Numbered from the stretch's first letter, positions 3 through 62,687 are shown. The stretch is 64,000 bases of DNA from Candidatus Gastranaerophilaceae bacterium (GCA_041678605.1 JBAYNW010000001.1:13947-77946); one strand, 5' to 3'. Notes: generated by a model not told the origin, from the letters alone. Numbers and translations are program-made.

Positions 3-806
3 GAAAAAAAACTTAAAGAGCAGATTAATCTTGTTGATGTTGTGATTGAGGTTCTTGATGCGAGAATTCCATTGAGCAGCTGTTATACAAATATTAAATC
101 CCTGCTGGGCGAAAAACCCCGCCTGATTTTGCTTAACAAGGCAGATTTGACCGAAGAACACGAACTTAAAAATTGGATAAAAATCATTGAAAAGCTTTCA
201 GGCTGTCCTGTTTTGACCAGCGATGCCAAAAATTCTAAAAATTTGGATAAAATTGTAAGCAAAGCAGTCGAACTTAGCGAGCCTCGGATTCAAAAGTTAA
301 TGCAAAAGGGGCTTTTACACCGTGCGGCACGTGTTATGGTCGTCGGAATGCCGAATGTCGGCAAGTCCAGCATCATTAATAAATTAACAAAAACTTCCAA
401 AACGAAAGTCGGAGCCAAGGCAGGAGTTACCCGTCAGCAGCAGTGGGTAAAAATTAACCCTAAACTCGATTTGCTCGACACGCCCGGAATTATTCCAATG
501 AAACAGGAAGATCAGCAAAGAGCAAGAAAACTTGCGTTTGTGAATTCCGTTTCTGAAAACGCCTACGAAAGCGAAGCGGTTGCAAAAGAATTGTTGAAAA
601 TTTTGGAAGGCAAATACGGCATGAAAGTTAGAGCTTATTACTCTTTAAACGGGAACGACGAGTTGACGGTGGAAAATATCTCAAAAGCGAGAAACTGGAT
701 TGTAAAAGGTGCTTTGCCCGATATTGAACGCACCTCACAATTTGTACTGTGCGATTTTCGCACAGGTAAAATGGGGAAATTTATTTTGGACGAAGTGACC
801 GAGTAG
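3..806 (+). CDS. rbgA: ribosome biogenesis GTPase A (RbgA/YlqF), 5' end cut by window edge
   Basis: Frame is open from nt 3. Circularly permuted GTPase motif order: LLNKADL (G4), then GMPNVGKSSIINKL (P-loop), then LLDTPGI (G3). Also the DVVIEVLDARIP motif. Confidence 0.85.
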   Translation, partial: EKKLKEQINLVDVVIEVLDARIPLSSCYTNIKSLLGEKPRLILLNKADLTEEHELKNWIKIIEKLSGCPVLTSDAKNSKNLDKIVSKAVELSEPRIQKLMQKGLLHRAARVMVVGMPNVGKSSIINKLTKTSKTKVGAKAGVTRQQQWVKINPKLDLLDTPGIIPMKQEDQQRARKLAFVNSVSENAYESEAVAKELLKILEGKYGMKVRAYYSLNGNDELTVENISKARNWIVKGALPDIERTSQFVLCDFRTGKMGKFILDEVTE

Positions 807-888
807 GTTGGGCTTTTGTTTGACCCCCTCCCCCCCCCCTGAAGGGCGAGGGTTTGGGGTGGGGGGTTAAAATTTGCCCAACAACATA
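803..888. repeat. poly-C/poly-G palindromic miniature element (GTAGGTTGGGC ... GGTTTGGGGTGGGGGG ... GCCCAACAACAT)
   Basis: The same termini and G/C core recur inside rsgA (54977-55100). Related cores occur at 1478-1512, 2544-2583, 2725-2761 and 62431-62507. Confidence 0.65.
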
Positions 889-896
889 AGGCTAAT

Positions 897-1772
897 ATGA
901 CTAAATCAAATAATTTATTCGAATTTGAAAGAAATTTTTCTGCTTGTTCCACCCTTGAGGGGGAACCGACATTGTGTAAAAATTTCGAAGGGGAGAGAAA
1001 AACAATAGTAATCGGCACAGACGAAGCAGGCCGGGGTCCCGGTGCGGGCGGCGTTTTTGCAAGTGCGGTTTATTTTCCTGACCCAAATAAGGAACTGATA
1101 AAAAAACTTGCCTTCCTTAATGATTCTAAAAAGCTTTCAAAGAAAAAGAGAGAAGAACTGTATGAAATAATCATTGAAAACGCAATCCATTCGACCGTTT
1201 GCGTAGAAGTTGAAGAAATAGAAAAAATAAATATCTTGAATGCATCTTTAAAGGCAATGAAATTGGCTGTTGAAAATGTCATAAACGAGATGCAAAGCTG
1301 CATAGATGCAAAGACGCAAAGCGACGCAACTCTTGTTGAGAAAAGAAACTTAGAGATGTGTCATTGCGAGGAGCGAGGCACGAGCGACGCGGCAATCCAA
1401 AAAAAATCTTCTCACCTCTCACCTCTCACTTCTCACATTTTGGTCCTTGTTGATGGAAACAAGTTAATTAAAAACTTCCCCTCGCCCCTTGGGGGAGAGG
1501 GCAGGGTGAGGGTTAATATAACTCAAAAGTTTATAATCAAGGGCGACTCAAAGTCCGCAAGCATTGCGGCGGCAAGTATTTTGGCAAAAGTTTCACGTGA
1601 CAGATATATGAAGGAACTTGGCAAAAAATTTCCGCAGTACAACTGGGGGCAAAACGCAGGATATTTGACGGCAGAACATTTAGATGCTATTGATAAATAT
1701 GGACTAACACCAATTCACAGGAAAAGTTTTTTGAGGAAACACAACGCAAAGCAACTAAGCCTTTTGAATTGA
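897..1772 (+). CDS. rnhB: ribonuclease HII, with in-frame repeat insertions
   Basis: Motifs GTDEAGRGPGAGGVFASAV, LNDSKKLS, VDGN, KGDSKSASIAAASILAKVSRD and NAGY..AEH. True start is uncertain because the N-terminal 35 aa are repeat-derived. Confidence 0.85.
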   Translation: MTKSNNLFEFERNFSACSTLEGEPTLCKNFEGERKTIVIGTDEAGRGPGAGGVFASAVYFPDPNKELIKKLAFLNDSKKLSKKKREELYEIIIENAIHSTVCVEVEEIEKINILNASLKAMKLAVENVINEMQSCIDAKTQSDATLVEKRNLEMCHCEERGTSDAAIQKKSSHLSPLTSHILVLVDGNKLIKNFPSPLGGEGRVRVNITQKFIIKGDSKSASIAAASILAKVSRDRYMKELGKKFPQYNWGQNAGYLTAEHLDAIDKYGLTPIHRKSFLRKHNAKQLSLLN

Positions 1773-1794
1773 TGGTCCAAAGCCCATCCTACTT

Positions 1795-2157
1795 CTATTT
1801 ATACTTTTTAGATAATATATCGAGCCATCCATTCAGTGCATCAAATGGCGTAAGGCTTGAAGTTTCTTTACCTTTTACAGAGGGCATAAGGTCCTCTAAT
1901 AGTTCAACATGCGACTTAGTCTCCCCTTTTGTTATTTGAACTTCAAGAGGTATATCATTTCCTTCTATCCAGGTATAAATCCAATCACAATTTACACCTT
2001 GAGCTTTTTTAAACAAAAAATCTTTTTGTTCTTTTAAAATAATATTGCTCGTATCATATATTCTCAAAACAGCATTGAAAGTTGGCTGCTTTATATTTTT
2101 ATTTTGACCTTTGTTTAAAGATACGGAATTATACTTAGCTTGTGGAATTGATAACAT
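1795..2157 (-). CDS. hypothetical protein (orphan family with shared upstream motif)
   Basis: 120-aa ORF. N-terminus has ..KQPTFNAVLRIY.., resembling ..QASFGSVNLVQV.. of ORF 39792-40412. Upstream motif pair at 2178-2193 and 2226-2241. Confidence 0.5.
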   Translation of the reverse strand: MLSIPQAKYNSVSLNKGQNKNIKQPTFNAVLRIYDTSNIILKEQKDFLFKKAQGVNCDWIYTWIEGNDIPLEVQITKGETKSHVELLEDLMPSVKGKETSSLTPFDALNGWLDILSKKYK

Positions 2158-2291
2158 ATGTTTCCTTCATTTTCTAATATATTTAATATAAACCTTCTAA
2201 AGAGATTTTGTGCTAGCTCTGAAAATTTATTTACATAAATTCACATTGAAGAATAAGAATATTCTTGATAGAATTAATTTAGCGAGGAAAA

Positions 2292-3920
2292 ATGCAGTAC
2301 AATTCAATTAACTATGTGCCAAAAATAGAACCTGACAGTCTGGAAGTGCTTTCTTTGATTTACACGCCGGGCGTCGGGCATGCGTGTATGAAAATTAAGG
2401 AACAGGCGGGGCTTTCTTACGTTTATACCAACCGTGAAAATTCCGTTGCGGTTTTGTCCTTTGATTACGAAAAATCTCTCAAGCGGGCGATATTCCTAAA
2501 AAGTACGCTTAATATTGACGCATATCCGTTTGAAGCCAATATACCCTCCCCCCTTGAGGGTGAGCGAAGCTCTGGTGGGGAGCTTCAAGGTGTAATCAAA
2601 CTAGTAGTTGAAAATATTTCCCCAAATTTTTGCGGAATTGACTTGACGCTGATTACAGATGAAGTAAAAAATATTGAGTTTGATGTCGAAATTCCTGTTT
2701 TGAAAAGCACTTGTGCCGGAAATACCCCCCACCCCAACCCTCCCCCTCAAGGGGGGAGGGAGCAAACCGCGGCCGTTGAACCTATTCCAAAATCGGGTGT
2801 CGACATAATGGATTTTTTCAAACCATTTTCAAAAAATATTTTTCAATTTGATATAAATCAGCTTGAGGGTGATTTTAAAGAGCAGGCACTTTATTTAAGA
2901 GAAAAGGCAGGCGGAGTGATTGAAAGCCAATTAAGCGAAGAACCTTTCGTTTACCCTCCTGTTGCGATAATTTCTGACGGCTCGGCCGTGCTGGGGTTTG
3001 GAAATATCGGTCCGGAAGCCGGTCTTCCCGTGATGGAAGGGAAGGCAGTAATTTTCAAATCACTCGGTGGCGTAAACGCAATACCGCTTTGTCTTAAAAC
3101 CCAAAAATCCGGGGAAATAATAAAAATTGTGCAGGCTTTAAAAAATTCTTTCTCAGGCATAAATCTTGAGGATATTTCTGCACCAAGATGTTTTGACATT
3201 GAAAAGGAATTGATTAAAACCCTTGATATTCCCGTATTTCATGATGACCAGCATGGAACTGCGATTGTTGTTTTGGCAGCACTTTTGAACTCACTTACTC
3301 TTGCAAAGAAAAAGATTGCCAAAGTAAAAATAGTTTTTTCAGGTGCAGGAGCGGCAGCACAGGCGGTTTCCAAATTACTTATGAAAGCAGGGGCGAAAGA
3401 TATAATCCATGTTAATAAAAACGGAATAGTTAACGAAAACTCCGCTCAGGGAGATAATTATCTTAAAGAGTTAGCCAAAGTGACCAATAAAGAGGGTTTG
3501 GAAGGAAAACTGGAGGATGCACTTAAAGGAGCTGATGTTTTTATCGGGCTTTCGGCAGGTGGAGTTTTGAAGTCGGAATTTATCAAACAAATGGCCGAAA
3601 GCCCGATAATCTTTGCTCTGGCAAACCCGACTCCTGAAATCATGCCAAATGAAGCAAAGGCGGCAGGGGCATTTATTGTAGCAACCGGTCGGAGTGATTT
3701 TGATAACCAGATTAACAATTCACTCGTTTTTCCCGGACTATTCAGAGGGGTTTTGGATAACGGGATTAAAAAAATCACGGACGAAATCAAACTCGGATGT
3801 GCAATCGCACTTGCCTCGCTTATAAAAGACGAGGATTTAAGCCCGACAAACATCTTGCCGAATGCACTTGACCCGAGAGTTGTTTTGGCGGTTGCAAGCC
3901 GATTGGCTGAGTTTACCTGA
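2292..3920 (+). CDS. NAD(P)-dependent malic enzyme (short type) with a 169-codon insertion
   Basis: Motifs LIYTPGVG, SDGSAVLGFGNIGPEAGLPVMEGKAVIFK, INLEDISAPRCF, PVFHDDQHGTAIV, FSGAGAAAQA, ALANPTPEI and NNSLVFPG. Confidence 0.85.
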   Translation: MQYNSINYVPKIEPDSLEVLSLIYTPGVGHACMKIKEQAGLSYVYTNRENSVAVLSFDYEKSLKRAIFLKSTLNIDAYPFEANIPSPLEGERSSGGELQGVIKLVVENISPNFCGIDLTLITDEVKNIEFDVEIPVLKSTCAGNTPHPNPPPQGGREQTAAVEPIPKSGVDIMDFFKPFSKNIFQFDINQLEGDFKEQALYLREKAGGVIESQLSEEPFVYPPVAIISDGSAVLGFGNIGPEAGLPVMEGKAVIFKSLGGVNAIPLCLKTQKSGEIIKIVQALKNSFSGINLEDISAPRCFDIEKELIKTLDIPVFHDDQHGTAIVVLAALLNSLTLAKKKIAKVKIVFSGAGAAAQAVSKLLMKAGAKDIIHVNKNGIVNENSAQGDNYLKELAKVTNKEGLEGKLEDALKGADVFIGLSAGGVLKSEFIKQMAESPIIFALANPTPEIMPNEAKAAGAFIVATGRSDFDNQINNSLVFPGLFRGVLDNGIKKITDEIKLGCAIALASLIKDEDLSPTNILPNALDPRVVLAVASRLAEFT

Positions 3921-5283
3921 ACTTTTTCATCGCATTCATCACTTGAGCCATGTTTGGTTTCCCCTTGCCGCCTTTGAGATTGTCGGTCATGCCGGACATT
4001 CCTTTCATCATGGTACGCATTTGCTCAAATTGTTTGATAAAAATATTTATATCATGCAGAGAAATACCGCTGCCTTCGGCAATCCGTTTTTTGCGGCCGG
4101 AATTAATCAATTGCGGGTTTGCCCTTTCTTCAGGCGTCATACTGGAAATAAAAACTTCAATTCTCTTAAACTGTTTTTCGCCCTGATGGGAAATCAAATC
4201 CTTATCTTCCCTTTTTAAATTAGGAATCGGGAGCATTCCAAGGATTTGGTCGATTGAGCCGAACATTTTCATCTGTTTTTGCATTTTTAAAAAATCGTCA
4301 AAAGAAAATTCGGCTTTTCGCATTTTCTTTTCAAGTTCAAGTGCTTCTTTCTCGTCAAAAACTTCCTGAGCTCTTTCAACGAGCGAAACAATATCGCCCA
4401 TTCCTAAAATTCTTGTCGCCATCCGCTCAGGGTAGAAATCTTCCAATGCGTTCAGTTTTTCACCGGTACCTGTTAATTTAATCGGTTTTTTTGTGCAATG
4501 AACCACGCTTAAGGCCGACCCGCCGCGTGAATCACCGTCCAGTTTGGTTAAAACAAGTCCCGTAAGGCTGAGCTGTGCGTCAAAGTTTTCTGCGACATTC
4601 ACGGCCTCCTGACCGGTCATTGCATCAATTACGAGAAGCTTTTCCTGTGGAGCGAAAATTCTGTCGATGAGCAAAAGTTCGGCCATCATGTCGGTATCAA
4701 TTTGCAAACGCCCTGCCGTGTCAAGGATTAAGGTGTTAAATCCGTTTTCTTTTGCGTAAGATATTGCATTTTGAACAATTTTTTGAACATCTTTGGAATT
4801 TTCGTCTGAAAAGACTTCGACGCCGATTTGCTGTCCCAAAGCCTGTAATTGCTTTATAGCAGCAGGACGGTAAATATCACATGCTACTAAAAGCGGGTTT
4901 CTGCCTTCTTTTTTTAGTTTCACGGCAAGTTTTGCCGATGATGTGGTTTTCCCTGACCCCTGAAGTCCCAGCATCATAATAATATTAGGATGTCCGTCAA
5001 GATTGAGCGGAGAAAGCTCACGCCCCAAAAGTTCCACGAGTTCATCGTGGACAATTTTGACAAGCTGTTGAGAAGGATTGACGCCCTTTAACACCTCTTC
5101 GCCTTCGGCTTTGTCCTTAATGTTTGAGATAAATGCTTTTACCACACGCAAATTAACATCCGCCTCCAAAAGTGCACGGCGGATTTCCCTCAGGGCTTCT
5201 TGCATATTGTCTTCGGTCAAAGCACCGCTTGAAGACGTTTTTCTGATTATATCCTGTAATCTGTCTGATAAAGAGTCGAACAT
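3913..5283 (-). CDS. ffh: signal recognition particle protein Ffh
   Basis: MFDSLSDRLQ N-terminus, GLQGSGKTTSSAKLA P-loop, DTAGRLQ, TKLDGDSRGG, and a Met-rich M domain at the C-terminus. Confidence 0.95.
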   Translation of the reverse strand: MFDSLSDRLQDIIRKTSSSGALTEDNMQEALREIRRALLEADVNLRVVKAFISNIKDKAEGEEVLKGVNPSQQLVKIVHDELVELLGRELSPLNLDGHPNIIMMLGLQGSGKTTSSAKLAVKLKKEGRNPLLVACDIYRPAAIKQLQALGQQIGVEVFSDENSKDVQKIVQNAISYAKENGFNTLILDTAGRLQIDTDMMAELLLIDRIFAPQEKLLVIDAMTGQEAVNVAENFDAQLSLTGLVLTKLDGDSRGGSALSVVHCTKKPIKLTGTGEKLNALEDFYPERMATRILGMGDIVSLVERAQEVFDEKEALELEKKMRKAEFSFDDFLKMQKQMKMFGSIDQILGMLPIPNLKREDKDLISHQGEKQFKRIEVFISSMTPEERANPQLINSGRKKRIAEGSGISLHDINIFIKQFEQMRTMMKGMSGMTDNLKGGKGKPNMAQVMNAMKKFR

Positions 5284-5325
5284 ATTTTAATTTTACTATA
5301 AAAAAAGTCGTATTATAATAGTCTT

Positions 5326-6237
5326 ATGTTCAGGTTAGAAAAATTTATGGGAAGAAGAGTTTTGAAATCATCTCTATTGGATGATTTCGGCGTTGCTGCG
5401 TTTTTTACAACGAGAGATTTGCCGCTGAAATCAGGCGAAAGAGAAGATTTGATTGAAGAAGTCGAAAACAACAAACGCCTTGTTTGCGAAGGACTTGGTA
5501 TCCCTGCAGAAAACCTCATAATTCCTGTTCAAACTCACAGCGACAATGTAAGATGTATAGGGGCAAAGACGCATAGAAGCGTAGAAAATTTAAACATTTC
5601 AGCCTTTCAGCCTTTCAGCCCTTCAACCCTGGAAAACAACGACGCACTTATAACTGACCGGCCACAAATTGCACTGGCACTAAATTTTGCCGATTGCGTT
5701 CCGATTATTTTTTACGACCCGATTAAAAAAGCTGCCGCAGCGGCTCATGCCGGCTGGCGTGGAACAGCGGCAAAAATCGGCCCAAAAACAGTCAAAAAAA
5801 TGGCTGAAAATTTTGGTTCAAAACCTGAAGACATAATTGCACTTATCGGCCCGGCAATCGGAAAATGCTGTTTTGAAGTGGGAGAAGATGTTAAAGAAAA
5901 ACTGCTCGTCTCTGCGTCACTGCGAGGCTTAAAATGTAAAAATCAGCCAAAGTCGTCCACCGAAGCAGTCTGTCCAAAAGACAATGCCGGCAAGATTGCT
6001 TCGGTGGGTATTTCAAGCCCAGCCGATAATCAATGCCTCGCAATGACGGTTTGTGATAACAATAATATTGATTTAAAACAGATTAACAAACTTCAACTAT
6101 TAGCCATTGGGGTAAGAAAAATAGATTTATGCGAGTATTGCACTTCTTGCAGAACTGATTTATTCTTTTCTTATAGAAAAGAAAACGGCAATACCGCCAG
6201 ACATTCGGCAGTTATAATGATAAGAAATGAGAGATAA
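5326..6237 (+). CDS. pgeF: peptidoglycan editing factor PgeF / YfiH (DUF152 laccase-domain) with two in-frame repeat insertions
   Basis: Motifs VQTHSDNV, NFADCVPI, AHAGWRGT, GPAIGKCCFEVG and LFFSYRKENGNTARH. Confidence 0.8.
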   Translation: MFRLEKFMGRRVLKSSLLDDFGVAAFFTTRDLPLKSGEREDLIEEVENNKRLVCEGLGIPAENLIIPVQTHSDNVRCIGAKTHRSVENLNISAFQPFSPSTLENNDALITDRPQIALALNFADCVPIIFYDPIKKAAAAAHAGWRGTAAKIGPKTVKKMAENFGSKPEDIIALIGPAIGKCCFEVGEDVKEKLLVSASLRGLKCKNQPKSSTEAVCPKDNAGKIASVGISSPADNQCLAMTVCDNNNIDLKQINKLQLLAIGVRKIDLCEYCTSCRTDLFFSYRKENGNTARHSAVIMIRNER

Positions 6238-32379: not shown

Positions 32380-33141
32380 TCAATAACTCATCTGCCAGCC
32401 TTCGTCGATGATTCTGCCGATACAATAGGAACCGGATTTATTTGTTCCGCCGTTATATCCGTCGTTACAAAGCTTGTTGGATTTCCAGTAGGTAAGTTTA
32501 GCCCCGCCAACGGGATATAATGCAGGGCCATTATCATTGACAATCCTAAAGTAAAATATATCGCGACCAAAAGCATTTGGTTTTTTGAGCCCGTTTACAT
32601 CAATATAAACACTTGCCATACATACTTTTGTCAGAGAATCAGCTGAACCGCTGCAACCTAAATATGGGGTTTTGCCAAGAAAAACCGACATACCATCCGC
32701 TGTTATAAACCTGTAATAAGATGTCCAATCATATCCACTTGAAGTGTTAGTGCCATCAAAATTTAGTGCTATTGTATTTGAAAAACAGCCTGAGGTTGTC
32801 GTATCACAATTCTTTGCCACATTAAAATAAGCAGCTATCTTATCGCCCATAGTTTTTGCATCGGCCGAATCAAAGAAGCAGCTTAAATCACCTATGCATC
32901 CTGAATCTGCGGCCATCTGGATTAATGCCTGATTCCACAAGGAGTAAGCTTTTCTCACGCCTGCGACGTATCCTACTTTTTGGGATTCGGCAATCAGTCC
33001 CGGAATCATAAGCCCTGCGACCACGCCGATAATGCCGATTGTGACTAAAACTTCGGCGAGAGTGAAGGCGAGTGAGCGAAAGAAAACTCCCTGCTGTTGG
33101 GCTTGCCAGCCCAACCTACTTTGTTTTTTATCGGATTTCAT
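32380..33141 (-). CDS. prepilin-type N-terminal cleavage/methylation domain protein (pilin/pseudopilin-like)
   Basis: FTLAEVLVTIGIIGVVAGL class III signal region. C-terminal IDVNG.KKPN..GRDIF motif shared with ORF 57501-58193. Confidence 0.7.
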   Translation of the reverse strand: MKSDKKQSRLGWQAQQQGVFFRSLAFTLAEVLVTIGIIGVVAGLMIPGLIAESQKVGYVAGVRKAYSLWNQALIQMAADSGCIGDLSCFFDSADAKTMGDKIAAYFNVAKNCDTTTSGCFSNTIALNFDGTNTSSGYDWTSYYRFITADGMSVFLGKTPYLGCSGSADSLTKVCMASVYIDVNGLKKPNAFGRDIFYFRIVNDNGPALYPVGGAKLTYWKSNKLCNDGYNGGTNKSGSYCIGRIIDEGWQMSY

Positions 33142-33168
33142 AAATCTTTTCCTTCCAAAGCTTCATTT

Positions 33169-54671: not shown

Positions 54672-54819
54672 GTCCTGCTCCTGTTAATCTATTCTGATAT
54701 TTTTTGATAATATCATAAAAAAGTCAAATTTCAAAATTGCTTAACATTTCTTGCTTGGAAATCCAAATTGGTATATTATTATTAAAGTTACGGGAATAAG
54801 AAACAGGGAACAGGAAACG

Positions 54820-55992
54820 GTGAAGGGACAAATATTTAAGATACATTCGGATTTTTATTACGTAAATTCAGGAAACGAGGTTTACGAGTGTAAGGTGCGT
54901 GAAGTTTTAAAAAAACAAAAAGAAAAGATTTTGGTCGGAGATTTTGTAGATATTTCAGAGATAAATGCTCGTCAAAGTAGGTTAGGCTATTGTCCGGCTC
55001 CATCCCCCCTTGAGGGAAGGACTCCGCTCTGTCGATTGAGTATCGACAGAGATGGAGGGAAAGGTTTGGGGTGGGGGGCTTCCAAAATTGCCCAACAGCA
55101 AAAAACTGCTGTTATAGAAAAAATCTTACCCAGAAAAAATTTCTTAACCCGTCCGAGTGTCGCAAACGTTGAGCAGGTCGTAATAGTTTCTTCGATTAAA
55201 GAGCCTGATTTGGACTTTGAACAGCTTAACAGGTACATTGCACTTGCAAAATACCATAAGATTAAAACAAAACTGTGCTTTAATAAAAATGATTTGTCGG
55301 AAGATGACACAATTATTGAAAAAATCTTTGAAATTTACGAACCGCTTGGATTTGAAATAGTTTTCACATCTGCTTTAGAAAAACTCGGAATAGAAGATTT
55401 TGTGGAACTTTTGGGAAATAAAATCACTGTTTTTTGCGGAAATTCAGGCGTGGGCAAATCGAGTTTGATAAACTCGATTTGCCCCGATTTAAATATAAAA
55501 ACAAAAGAAGTTAGCGAAAAGACAAGCCGTGGGGTTCACACGACAAGACATTGTGAGATAATCACGATAGGAAACAGTAAATCGAAAACAGGAAACAGAA
55601 GCCTCTCACTTACAAAAATTATCGATACTCCGGGATTCAGCAATGTAAAATTTGATTTTTTAATGCCTGATGACATTGATGAACTTTTTGACGAAATAAA
55701 AAAATACAAATCAAATTGTAAATTCAAGGACTGTCTGCATATCCAAGAGGAAGGCTGCGAAGTTCTTGAACACATCGATGAAATTGACATTTCAAGATAT
55801 CAGAGTTATCTTTCTTTTGTTGAGGAGGCAAAGGACTTTAAAGAAAAAGTAAAACGTCAGGGTACAAAAAAGGAAACCTCGCAAAAAGAAGGTTTGAACA
55901 GACAGGTTGCAAAAATCAGCACCCGCAAACGCCAGTCCGCCAGAAATACTCTAAAACAAAATATTTATAAGGATTTGGAAGAAGACGAATAA
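54820..55992 (+). CDS. rsgA: ribosome small subunit-dependent GTPase A with in-frame repeat insertion
   Basis: VKGQIFKIHSDFYYV OB-fold start (GTG at 54820; the ORF is open from TTG at 54751). Motifs NVEQVVIV, FNKNDL, GNSGVGKSSLIN, IIDTPGF and the zinc motif C.F.DC.H..E.GC. Confidence 0.85.
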   Translation: MKGQIFKIHSDFYYVNSGNEVYECKVREVLKKQKEKILVGDFVDISEINARQSRLGYCPAPSPLEGRTPLCRLSIDRDGGKGLGWGASKIAQQQKTAVIEKILPRKNFLTRPSVANVEQVVIVSSIKEPDLDFEQLNRYIALAKYHKIKTKLCFNKNDLSEDDTIIEKIFEIYEPLGFEIVFTSALEKLGIEDFVELLGNKITVFCGNSGVGKSSLINSICPDLNIKTKEVSEKTSRGVHTTRHCEIITIGNSKSKTGNRSLSLTKIIDTPGFSNVKFDFLMPDDIDELFDEIKKYKSNCKFKDCLHIQEEGCEVLEHIDEIDISRYQSYLSFVEEAKDFKEKVKRQGTKKETSQKEGLNRQVAKISTRKRQSARNTLKQNIYKDLEEDE

Positions 55993-61268: not shown

Positions 61269-61286
61269 ATTCGTGAGAGGTGAGAA

Positions 61287-62687
61287 GTGAGAGGTGAGAG
61301 GAAATTATTAATATTTATCGCCCTTATTACCTTGCTTTTAACTGGTTGCATTAAAAAAGATTCCCGAACGGTCATTCAATTCGCAACATGGGGTTCGCAA
61401 TCGGAAGTTGCAATTTTGAAACCGATTTTGGCCGAATTTGAAAGGGAAAATCCTGATGTAAAAGTTGATTTAATACATATTCCGCAGAATTATTTCCAAA
61501 AAATTCACCTGCTTTTTGCGTCAAATTTGGCTCCTGACGTGATTTTTATAAACAACTTATATCTGCCAGTTTATGCCAATGCCGGCGTGTTGCAGGAGTT
61601 GAAAAGCCGAACAGTTGAAAAGCCGATAAGTTTGACTGTTTCAAAGAAAAACCATTCAACCTTTCGACCATTCAACCATTCAATTTTTTATAATAAGGCA
61701 TTGGATGCACTATCTTATGACGGAAAGCTTTACGCCATTCCCCGAGATGTTTCAAACCTTGTAATTTACTACAACAAAGACCTTTTTGACAAATACAAAG
61801 TGCCATACCCTAAAGCAAATTGGACGTTTAAGGATTTTTTAGCTGTGGCTCAAAGGCTTACCAAAGACACAAATAACGACGGCAAAAGGGATATTTGGGG
61901 TGTAAGTTTTGAGGAAGATCCGCCGTTGTTTTATTTGCCTTATTTAATGTCAGAAGGCGGCGGGGTTTTGTCGGACGATTTGAAAACTTTGATAATAGAT
62001 ACACCGCAGAGCCAAAAAGGGCTTAGGTTTTATGCCGATTTAAGAAATAAGTACCACGTGGCACCGACAAAGGCCGAGAGTGCGAGTGCGACCATGGCTC
62101 AATTGTTTTTGCAAGGAAAGCTTGCGATGCAGGTTTCGGGGCGTTGGCTTGTGCCAAAATACAGGGAAGATGCGAAATTTAATTGGGATGTGATTAATTT
62201 CCCAAGAGGGGATAAGGGCAGTGTTGTTCCGCTTGACGCTTCAGGCTGGGCAATTTCAAAAAGTTCTAAGCATAAGGAAGAGGCGGCAAAGCTGGTTGAA
62301 TTTTTGGCGTCAAAAAAAAGTATTGAGAAATTTACCCGAAGCGGGCTGATTGTACCTGCGAGAGTTGATGTTGCGGAGGGCGAATTTTTAGATAGAGATA
62401 GTGCAATTAAAAATTGTTCCTCTTATTTGACCCCCCACCCTTACCTTACCTCTCAACCCAAAGATACTCAATCTTTGGATTTCGGCAGAGTCCCTCAAGG
62501 GGGGAGGAAGAACCCATATAATGTAAGATTTTGCAGACCAAAAAGCGAAAGAGTTTTCATTGACGTAATCAAAACCTCAAAACCCACTCCGGTTTCGGTT
62601 GATTACAGTGAAATTCAGGACGAACTGCAAGAAAAAACGAATTATTTGTTTAATTTAAACACTAATGCTTGTCATGTTTTGAATTAA
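61287..62687 (+). CDS. ABC transporter extracellular solute-binding protein (family 1, sugar type) lipoprotein with in-frame repeat insertions
   Basis: Lipobox LLLTGC. Motifs IQFATWGS and LAPDVIFINN, plus a family-1 SBP pattern throughout. Confidence 0.75.
   Translation: MRGERKLLIFIALITLLLTGCIKKDSRTVIQFATWGSQSEVAILKPILAEFERENPDVKVDLIHIPQNYFQKIHLLFASNLAPDVIFINNLYLPVYANAGVLQELKSRTVEKPISLTVSKKNHSTFRPFNHSIFYNKALDALSYDGKLYAIPRDVSNLVIYYNKDLFDKYKVPYPKANWTFKDFLAVAQRLTKDTNNDGKRDIWGVSFEEDPPLFYLPYLMSEGGGVLSDDLKTLIIDTPQSQKGLRFYADLRNKYHVAPTKAESASATMAQLFLQGKLAMQVSGRWLVPKYREDAKFNWDVINFPRGDKGSVVPLDASGWAISKSSKHKEEAAKLVEFLASKKSIEKFTRSGLIVPARVDVAEGEFLDRDSAIKNCSSYLTPHPYLTSQPKDTQSLDFGRVPQGGRKNPYNVRFCRPKSERVFIDVIKTSKPTPVSVDYSEIQDELQEKTNYLFNLNTNACHVLN

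Follow-up and report, generated by a model that had tools for sequence, protein, structure and literature searches.

Short repeat DNA in frame at three sites of an RNase HII gene from a Gastranaerophilales-type bacterium

To our knowledge, selfish DNA that sits in frame within essential genes is a textbook matter only for the RPEs of Rickettsia. The STRR heptamers of cyanobacteria, reportedly the subject of work by Mazel in 1990 and by Vioque in 1997, are said to be found even within the gene for RNase P RNA in heterocystous cyanobacteria. Small dispersed repeats (SDRs), named in PMC3116915 and said to have been described by Elhai and colleagues in 2008, are reported from Nostoc. We know of no sequence relation between these SDRs and the elements that we describe below, and of no description in which SDRs repeatedly colonize the same hot spots of conserved enzymes in frame. 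The RPEs are selfish DNA inserted in frame in Rickettsia protein-coding genes (Ogata et al., 2000, as relayed in PMC10969869), and REP and REPIN elements are mobilized by RAYT (Y1) transposases (PMC3116915).

Here we describe an RNase HII gene, rnhB, that carries short repeats in frame. It lies in a window of 64,000 nucleotides from a Candidatus Gastranaerophilaceae bacterium (GCA_041678605.1, JBAYNW010000001.1:13947-77946), and bare coordinates are positions in this window. The genome (G000; 1.77 Mb in 58 contigs, 37.6% G+C, 97% complete) is that of a non-photosynthetic, as yet uncultured relative of cyanobacteria of the Gastranaerophilales type (Melainabacteria). Its named relatives are Gastranaerophilales or Melainabacteria MAGs, with MAGs from lakes as the closest species representatives.

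The locus resembles Rickettsia RPEs in that members of dispersed families lie in frame in unrelated housekeeping genes, that the host genes look functional and that the insert positions fit the fold. In-frame family members were found in rnhB, pgeF, rsgA, a malic enzyme gene, a solute-binding protein gene and others. The analogy with RPEs, which had been drawn for this locus before, holds for behavior but not for membership since, compared by size, those in rnhB measure 35-46 nt or form tandem arrays of 7- to 8-mers, whereas RPEs (Rickettsia families 1-10) are ~100-150 bp long. Also unlike RPEs, several unrelated families occupy one gene, three loops have been struck repeatedly across orthologs, and the host is a melainabacterium rather than an obligate intracellular alphaproteobacterium.

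As with STRRs, we found tandem heptanucleotide arrays that are dispersed, mainly intergenic and occasionally tolerated at a variable position in a functional gene. They differ from STRRs in their unit, TCTCACN, in their non-photosynthetic Gastranaerophilales-like host, and in their strictly strand-biased placement within protein-coding frames. The hairpin units of the CATTGCGAGG family are reminiscent of REP/REPINs, as they occur both as inverted doublets (135 nt) and as singlets in a genome with two RAYT-like genes, and insertions tend to fall within or beside existing elements, as with REPs. However, REPs are extragenic by definition, whereas many copies here are intragenic and translated, and no cognate RAYT was found. 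MITEs are marked by terminal inverted repeats and a target-site duplication; the 135-nt form has inverted ends, and the rnhB junctions showed no duplication. With Nostoc SDRs, the elements share a length below 50 nt, dispersal, the cyanobacterial phylum and nesting in other repeats. Our literature searches found no paper on in-frame repeats in Melainabacteria, and searches by repeat sequences (CATTGCGAG, LRFARND and others) returned only primers.

The rnhB gene and its inserts

rnhB occupies positions 897-1772 of the plus strand and encodes 291 amino acids in 876 nt, with the frame open throughout. Its product matches Pfam RNase_HII (PF01351) with an E-value of 1.6e-36 and 126.5 bits (curated cut-off 25.8), in two stretches that are split by an insert. 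The solved RNase HII structures of E. coli and T. maritima in the PDB likewise match in two blocks (query 36-127 and 204/210-279). In 48 homologs, D42, E43, G45-R46-G47, D76-S77-K78, D186, D217 and Y256 are invariant. These include the catalytic residues D42/E43 (1020-1025), D186 (1452-1454) and D217 (1545-1547), as well as GRG, DSK and the conserved Tyr, which we take, after T. maritima RNase H2 (3O3F), to be the substrate motifs.

We compared 212 ungapped codons of rnhB with those of three orthologs (L101, L102 and L103). Differences per nonsynonymous site were few (pN 0.10-0.14) compared to those per synonymous site (pS 0.68-0.89; saturated), and dN/dS was about 0.05-0.06 where computable, values that indicate strong purifying selection on the core. 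An AF2 model made from the 48-sequence alignment had a pLDDT of 80 overall and >90 in the core, with low confidence limited to the inserts (residues 18-30, where pLDDT was <50; 150-180; and 190-200). In the model, the conserved helix 105-130 is prolonged to residue 153. Foldseek aligned the model to E. coli RNase HII (7UWE_C) with an E-value of 2e-15 and a target TM of 0.84, and the RNase HII fold, together with its C-terminal helical domain, is predicted to be kept.

We detected neither an RNase HI (PF00075) nor a second RNase HII/HIII (PF01351) locus in the 97%-complete genome, and rnhB appears to be its sole RNase H. An independent contig from a single-run Logan assembly (L104, SRR6484787) was 100% identical over 1460 nt, all inserts included. 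RNase HII enzymes cut duplex DNA on the 5' side of an embedded ribonucleotide, and, judging from its sequence, the protein is probably produced and active. An earlier note on this DNA had read the ORF as an RNase HII, which the Pfam match confirms, with a frame open through the repeats that it listed, and had left the choice between inserts in tolerated loops and a gene in decay. The invariant motifs, low dN/dS, retained fold and status as sole RNase H, together with orthologs that are insert-free or otherwise filled, favor the tolerated loops; decay is not supported.

A protein alignment of rnhB with 18 relatives from the same family or order, together with the insert-free ortholog L103, delimits three regions with extra sequence: the N-terminal tail before strand 1, the stretch between the long helix and the D186 strand, and the stretch between the D186 and D217 strands. 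Relative to L103, rnhB has 19 additional codons at the N-terminal site, 44 at site 2 and 12 at site 3, and the inserts make up 27% of its length. At site 2, where the long helix is connected to the VDGN strand, 54 residues separate ENVI from LVDG, compared with 10 in L103, and the segment EMQSC...SPLTSH is missing or much shortened in the 18 relatives.

The earlier note had proposed three different repeats in rnhB, with about 50 extra codons between LKAMKLAVENV and LVDGN. The extra codons are present, measured at the 44 given above, and the modules are five at three sites; the N-terminal insert had been overlooked. This insert, STLEGEPTLCKNFEGER (about 945-998, plus strand, ~54 nt; segment SACSTLEGEPTLCKNFEGER), is a double hairpin, rich in G/C, that belongs to the PLEGGPK..FEGG family, and a copy resembling it is found at C5:13750. 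The insert is missing in L101, L102, L103 and most relatives, and its peptide family recurs at the N-terminus or hot spot 2 in 12 homologs.

Site 2 begins with a degenerate array of four RYGCAAAG octamers on the plus strand (1290-1321; ATGCAAAG CTGCATAG ATGCAAAG ACGCAAAG; translated MQSCIDAKTQ). The GCAAAGA-like repeats seen earlier are this array; they have a tandem period of 8 nt rather than 7 nt and are not a dispersed element, as we found no copies in G000 outside rnhB. The array is common to rnhB orthologs as MQRxKDAKMQ, and MQRxKDAK occurs in 11 of 116 homologs. At the same position, the empty site of L103 reads GATGCAAAAAAT, which is a possible slippage seed for the array. A 31-nt plus-strand spacer follows (1322-1352; SDATLVEKRNL), with no repeat match and no other copy in the genome. 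Since a counterpart, SDMALSEERAL, is present in the homolog P0002, the spacer predates the split of the rnhB and P0002 lineages.

The remainder of site 2, also on the plus strand, consists of a hairpin unit and a heptamer array. The unit, GTCATTGCGAGG...GACGCGGCAATCC (1360-1398; CHCEERGTSDAAIQ), resembles other copies over ~1353-1402. It had been described as a half copy of the CATTGCGAGG...GCAATCC element; the position stands, but the copy is a complete solo unit, half only relative to the 135-nt doublet. It is followed at 1399-1441 by A8 (1399-1406), TCT, four TCTCACN heptamers (1410-1437) and TTTT (KKSSHLSPLTSHI), so that there is one heptamer more than the three first counted. At site 3, the poly-C/poly-G hairpin PSPLGGEGRVRV (1478-1512, plus strand; residues 195-206) lies between the strands of D186 and D217. 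This element was correctly placed from the start, and its 12 codons are missing in all 18 of the family and order relatives.

The peptides at the insert junctions are ..NLEMCHCEER.., ..KKSSHLSPLTSH.. and ..NFPSPLGGEGR... The site-2 modules measure 32, 31, 46 and 43 nt. As no length is divisible by 3, their build-up needed either compensating steps or composite insertion. Comparison of the rnhB junctions with the empty sites of L101-L103 revealed no target-site duplications. An Rfam scan of 800-4000 returned just two sub-threshold chance matches, and the five modules do not fold appreciably better than shuffled sequences (poly-C/G hairpin, -8.9 kcal/mol, z -1.15).

Repeats also lie just upstream of rnhB. 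The spacer after the ylqF stop (~803-880) consists of a TAGGTTGGGC hairpin and then a poly-C/poly-G element, and an ORF on the minus strand (638-1018) is a probable by-product of these stop-poor upstream repeats.

Repeat families in the genome and in other genes

The CATTGCGAGG hairpin, heptamer and poly-C/G modules of rnhB belong to dispersed families of 24-74 copies or arrays, numbers far above chance expectation. The CATTGCGAGG...GCAATCC family has 39 exact CATTGCGAGG seeds in the genome, versus 0 for a reversed-pattern control. The rnhB unit is identical at 37 of 39 positions to intergenic copies at C11:15171 and C36:14922. Elsewhere, the family takes a 135-nt form made of two inverted units, in which the paired seeds are spaced by ~122 nt (C1:54630/54752 and C29:22452/22574 are examples). 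In rnhB, the unit stands alone. The GTCATTGCGAGG family was present in 20 of 41 order-level relatives. It is patchy but abundant in both the order and the class, with as many as ~100 copies per genome, and is near background in photosynthetic cyanobacteria.

Arrays of at least three TCTCACN units occur 74 times in the genome, in the same tct...tttt context, and the A-run before the heptamers in rnhB is also usual for this family. While 49 of the arrays are intergenic, 17 lie inside long open frames, and all 17 are co-oriented with the frame (2^-17, ~8e-6). The intragenic arrays all read TCTCAC on the coding strand because the other strand gives TGA stops. Read in any of the three frames of one strand, the heptamer yields the peptide SHLSPLT. 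Among 41 genomes, such arrays were restricted to G000 and to G023 and G012, its two closest relatives. The poly-C/G element of rnhB is a diverged member of a ~38-nt family, CTCCCTCCCCCCTTGAGGGGGAGGGTTGGGGTGGGGGG, with 24 CCTTGAGGGGG seeds in the genome, 14 of them inside long open frames. For the hairpin elements (the CATTGCGAGG unit and poly-C/G), five of six frames are stop-free.

We mapped repeats genome-wide using k=14 and a GC filter; a map with k=12, which flagged 30% of positions in this AT-rich genome, was discarded. The map contained 629 repeat segments, 99 of which lay well within long open frames (68 of 1481), and these within-ORF segments include paralogous pilin-like genes, which are not mobile repeats. 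By this measure, the inside of genes takes in ~75% of the genome but holds 99 of 629 segments, 13 of the 39 CATTGCGAGG seeds and 17 of the 74 heptamer arrays, so that most repeat families are depleted within genes.

Several other genes in the window contain repeats in frame, and for four of them (pgeF, rsgA, the solute-binding protein and malic enzyme), Pfam confirmed the identity. In the malic enzyme ORF (2292-3920), poly-C/poly-G hairpins lie at 2544-2560 and 2723-2762 (PSPLEGE; NTPHPNPPPQGGREQ), and the Pfam match to the N-terminal domain is split in two. The pgeF/YfiH-family ORF (5302-6234; Cu-oxidase_4, E 1e-62) contains an 8-nt tandem array at 5597-5630 (SAFQPFSPSTL) and, at ~5915-6049, a reverse-oriented CATTGCGAGG doublet (..IASVG..CLAMT). 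A repeat occupies 55003-55147 of rsgA (54745-55989; PSPLEGR...GLGWGAS), and the SBP_bac_1 solute-binding ORF (61284-62684) has repeats at 61639-61696 and 62470-62533 (octamers, HSTFRPFNHS; a PQGGR hairpin). Many matches of repeats within ORFs derive from a large family of prepilin-type paralogs (..FTLAEVLITLGIIGVVAGLMIP..CIGDLSCFFDSAD..; for example, 32383-33162, minus strand), the upstream frames of which traverse heptamer and CATTGCGAGG repeats.

The genome encodes two RAYT-like Y1 transposases (Y1_Tnp), at C2:15831-16193 on the minus strand and C11:47622-47969 on the plus strand. The C11 gene is bracketed by REPIN-like GGTGCGTTC..GTAGGGTG doublets, of which there are ~9 mostly local copies. 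A TAGGTTGGGGTTTCTACCCCAAC hairpin precedes the C2 gene, and another copy lies in frame within it (..DDVGVETPTYGY..). The REP TAGGTTGGGG..CCCCAAC, which is found at a RAYT and also sits in frame inside its RAYT gene, encodes SR[VL]G[LF]L..Q, a peptide that 21 orthologs carry at hot spot 2. We rejected RAYT as a demonstrated mobilizer of the rnhB elements, as both genes are flanked by other REP families, and a cognate RAYT for the CATTGCGAGG and poly-C/G elements was not found in the 97%-complete genome. The rnhB elements may nonetheless be mobile.

Inserts at the same sites in orthologs

Empty sites in related genomes, which the earlier note had named as a check, were found. In L103, an ortholog of 212 amino acids, none of the three sites is filled, and the gene order rplS-ylqF-rnhB-malic enzyme is the same. 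L102 (229 amino acids), with the same synteny, has as its insert only a clean array of four ATGCAAAG units, in the position of the rnhB octamers. The insert of L101 (243 amino acids), which is on a contig too short for a synteny check, consists of AAATGGA x3, followed by one CATTGCGAGG unit, an A-run and four TCTCACN heptamers.

We searched 5.8 billion proteins and found homologs of 212-305 amino acids that are 55-67% identical to rnhB overall, or 61-81% identical when inserts are excluded. Among 116 parsed homologs, which were chosen by similarity to the query with its inserts included, 42 have an insert at the N-terminus, 75 at hot spot 2 and 34 at hot spot 3, while 30 have none. The inserted peptides correspond to about a dozen recurring repeats in translation, including CHCEE..AIQ, PLEGGPK..FEGG, SPLxGEG, SHLSPLTSH, SRVGLLSHQQ, LCDPEINSGRR and HSE..AEES..AQHD. 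One family can occupy different sites: CHCEE..AIQ is at the N-terminus in 12 homologs and at hot spot 2 in 6. The closest homolog, P0002 (67% identical), keeps part of the composite, with octamers, spacer and CHCEE. In a member of another family of the same order (L004, G027:C346), hot spot 2 holds a low-complexity insert of ~40 residues rich in K, T and N (..TYKTHTKNYKTYTKTNKPEEKSGKKSG..), which is an independent event in a more distant lineage.

On a FastTree phylogeny of 190 conserved core columns, insert states were barely more clustered than when shuffled (hot spot 3, 23 changes versus a mean of 29.7), a result on which we do not lean, given the weak tree and the sample.

The hairpin, A-run and heptamer block (1353-1442) is identical to the same junction of L101 at 73 of 80 positions (~90%), with 27 of 27 in the heptamers. 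The flanking gene is 73% identical between the two, with saturated synonymous sites, and the excess in the block has a P-value of ~5e-5. Thus, the block is more conserved than expected of a neutral passenger inherited by descent. The hairpin unit of rnhB is closer to intergenic copies of its own genome than to the unit of L101. The similarity of the two blocks could stem from gene conversion, from insertions that recur at a preferred site or from a constraint on the DNA itself.

Origin and meaning of the inserts

We consider it probable that rnhB is a working RNase HII gene in which three permissive regions have been colonized by short repeat DNA. The colonizing DNA would be of the kinds found in intergenic spaces, that is, hairpin miniature elements together with tandem 7- to 8-mers that resemble STRRs. 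Such repeats may persist in rnhB when they are stop-poor, add a net length that is a multiple of three and fall where the extra, probably disordered, peptide spares the fold and the active site. Insertions elsewhere, out of frame or with the heptamers on the opposite strand would be purged by selection. A loop that holds repeat DNA could then act like a small intergenic mosaic in which modules are gained, swapped and lost, so that orthologs would differ at the three shared sites. The inserts themselves would be neutral or slightly deleterious passengers. We suggest that the hairpins may have spread by a RAYT/REPIN-like or other single-strand hairpin mechanism and the tandem arrays by slippage or recombination. 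The pattern bears the signature of selection filtering stop-poor repeat insertions, not of a special property of rnhB.

It is unlikely, in our assessment, that the inserts have instead been co-opted, either as peptides that serve the enzyme (a helical extension beyond residue 130, loops rich in Pro/Gly), for instance in partner binding or regulation, or as DNA or RNA hairpins for regulation, recombination or replication. Co-option would fit the conservation of block 1353-1442 relative to L101 beyond neutral expectation, the prolongation of the conserved helix through residues 131-153 in the AF2 model, and the retention of octamers, spacer and CHCEE in P0002, at 67% identity. However, 30 of the 116 close homologs are insert-free, and the others have unrelated peptides in these positions. 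The same sequences are also ordinary intergenic repeats, and those in rnhB have low pLDDT, fold no better than shuffles and match no Rfam family.

Colonization of a working gene also accounts better for the data than two readings to which we give still less weight. A load of five modules in 876 nt, amounting to 27% of the length, is extreme for this genome and would suit a decaying pseudogene that is still open by chance. We consider this very improbable, as the frame is open, all catalytic and substrate motifs are invariant, core dN/dS is ~0.05, the gene is the sole RNase H in a 97%-complete genome, and dozens of orthologs with comparable insert loads retain their frame. That the inserts are an artifact of assembly or binning, with repeats collapsed or chimerically joined, is scarcely credible. 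Short repeats are known to cause misassembly, and this MAG abounds in them, but the single-run assembly of SRR6484787 is identical over 1460 nt, L101 has the same arrangement of hairpin, A-run and heptamers at the same site in another sample, and a chimera would rarely preserve the frame three times.

Returning to colonization by repeats, we can extend it into a more speculative proposal, which we regard as possible but doubtful. The freshwater melainabacterial clade may contain at least 10 repeat families that have become "coding-compatible", being poor in stops and tolerated in translated form, and that use a few permissive loops of essential enzymes as harbors, with rapid turnover and homogenized copies. 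Gene conversion or repeated site-preferring insertion would keep the copies alike. Homogenization would explain how the rnhB block remains ~90% identical to that of L101 despite saturated synonymous sites. If this is correct, rnhB orthologs would amount to insertion scanning carried out by nature in replicate, and would provide a clock of how repeats come and go.

For annotation and for models of protein families, the inserts carry a warning, since the Pfam match is split and CHCEE..AIQ, SPLxGEG and SHLSPLTSH give spurious similarity between unrelated proteins. For the biology of these bacteria and of the enzyme, the finding extends RPE-like behavior to another phylum and to many unrelated, smaller elements, including STRR-like heptamers. 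Because three loops of one small enzyme have been struck in more than 80 of 116 orthologs, the pattern is replicated, and it provides a natural map of the tolerance of RNase HII for 12-50 extra residues. The orthologs form a data set in which the gain, loss and homogenization of miniature repeats can be measured against a conserved scaffold, and they offer a handle on how STRR-type and hairpin repeats spread.
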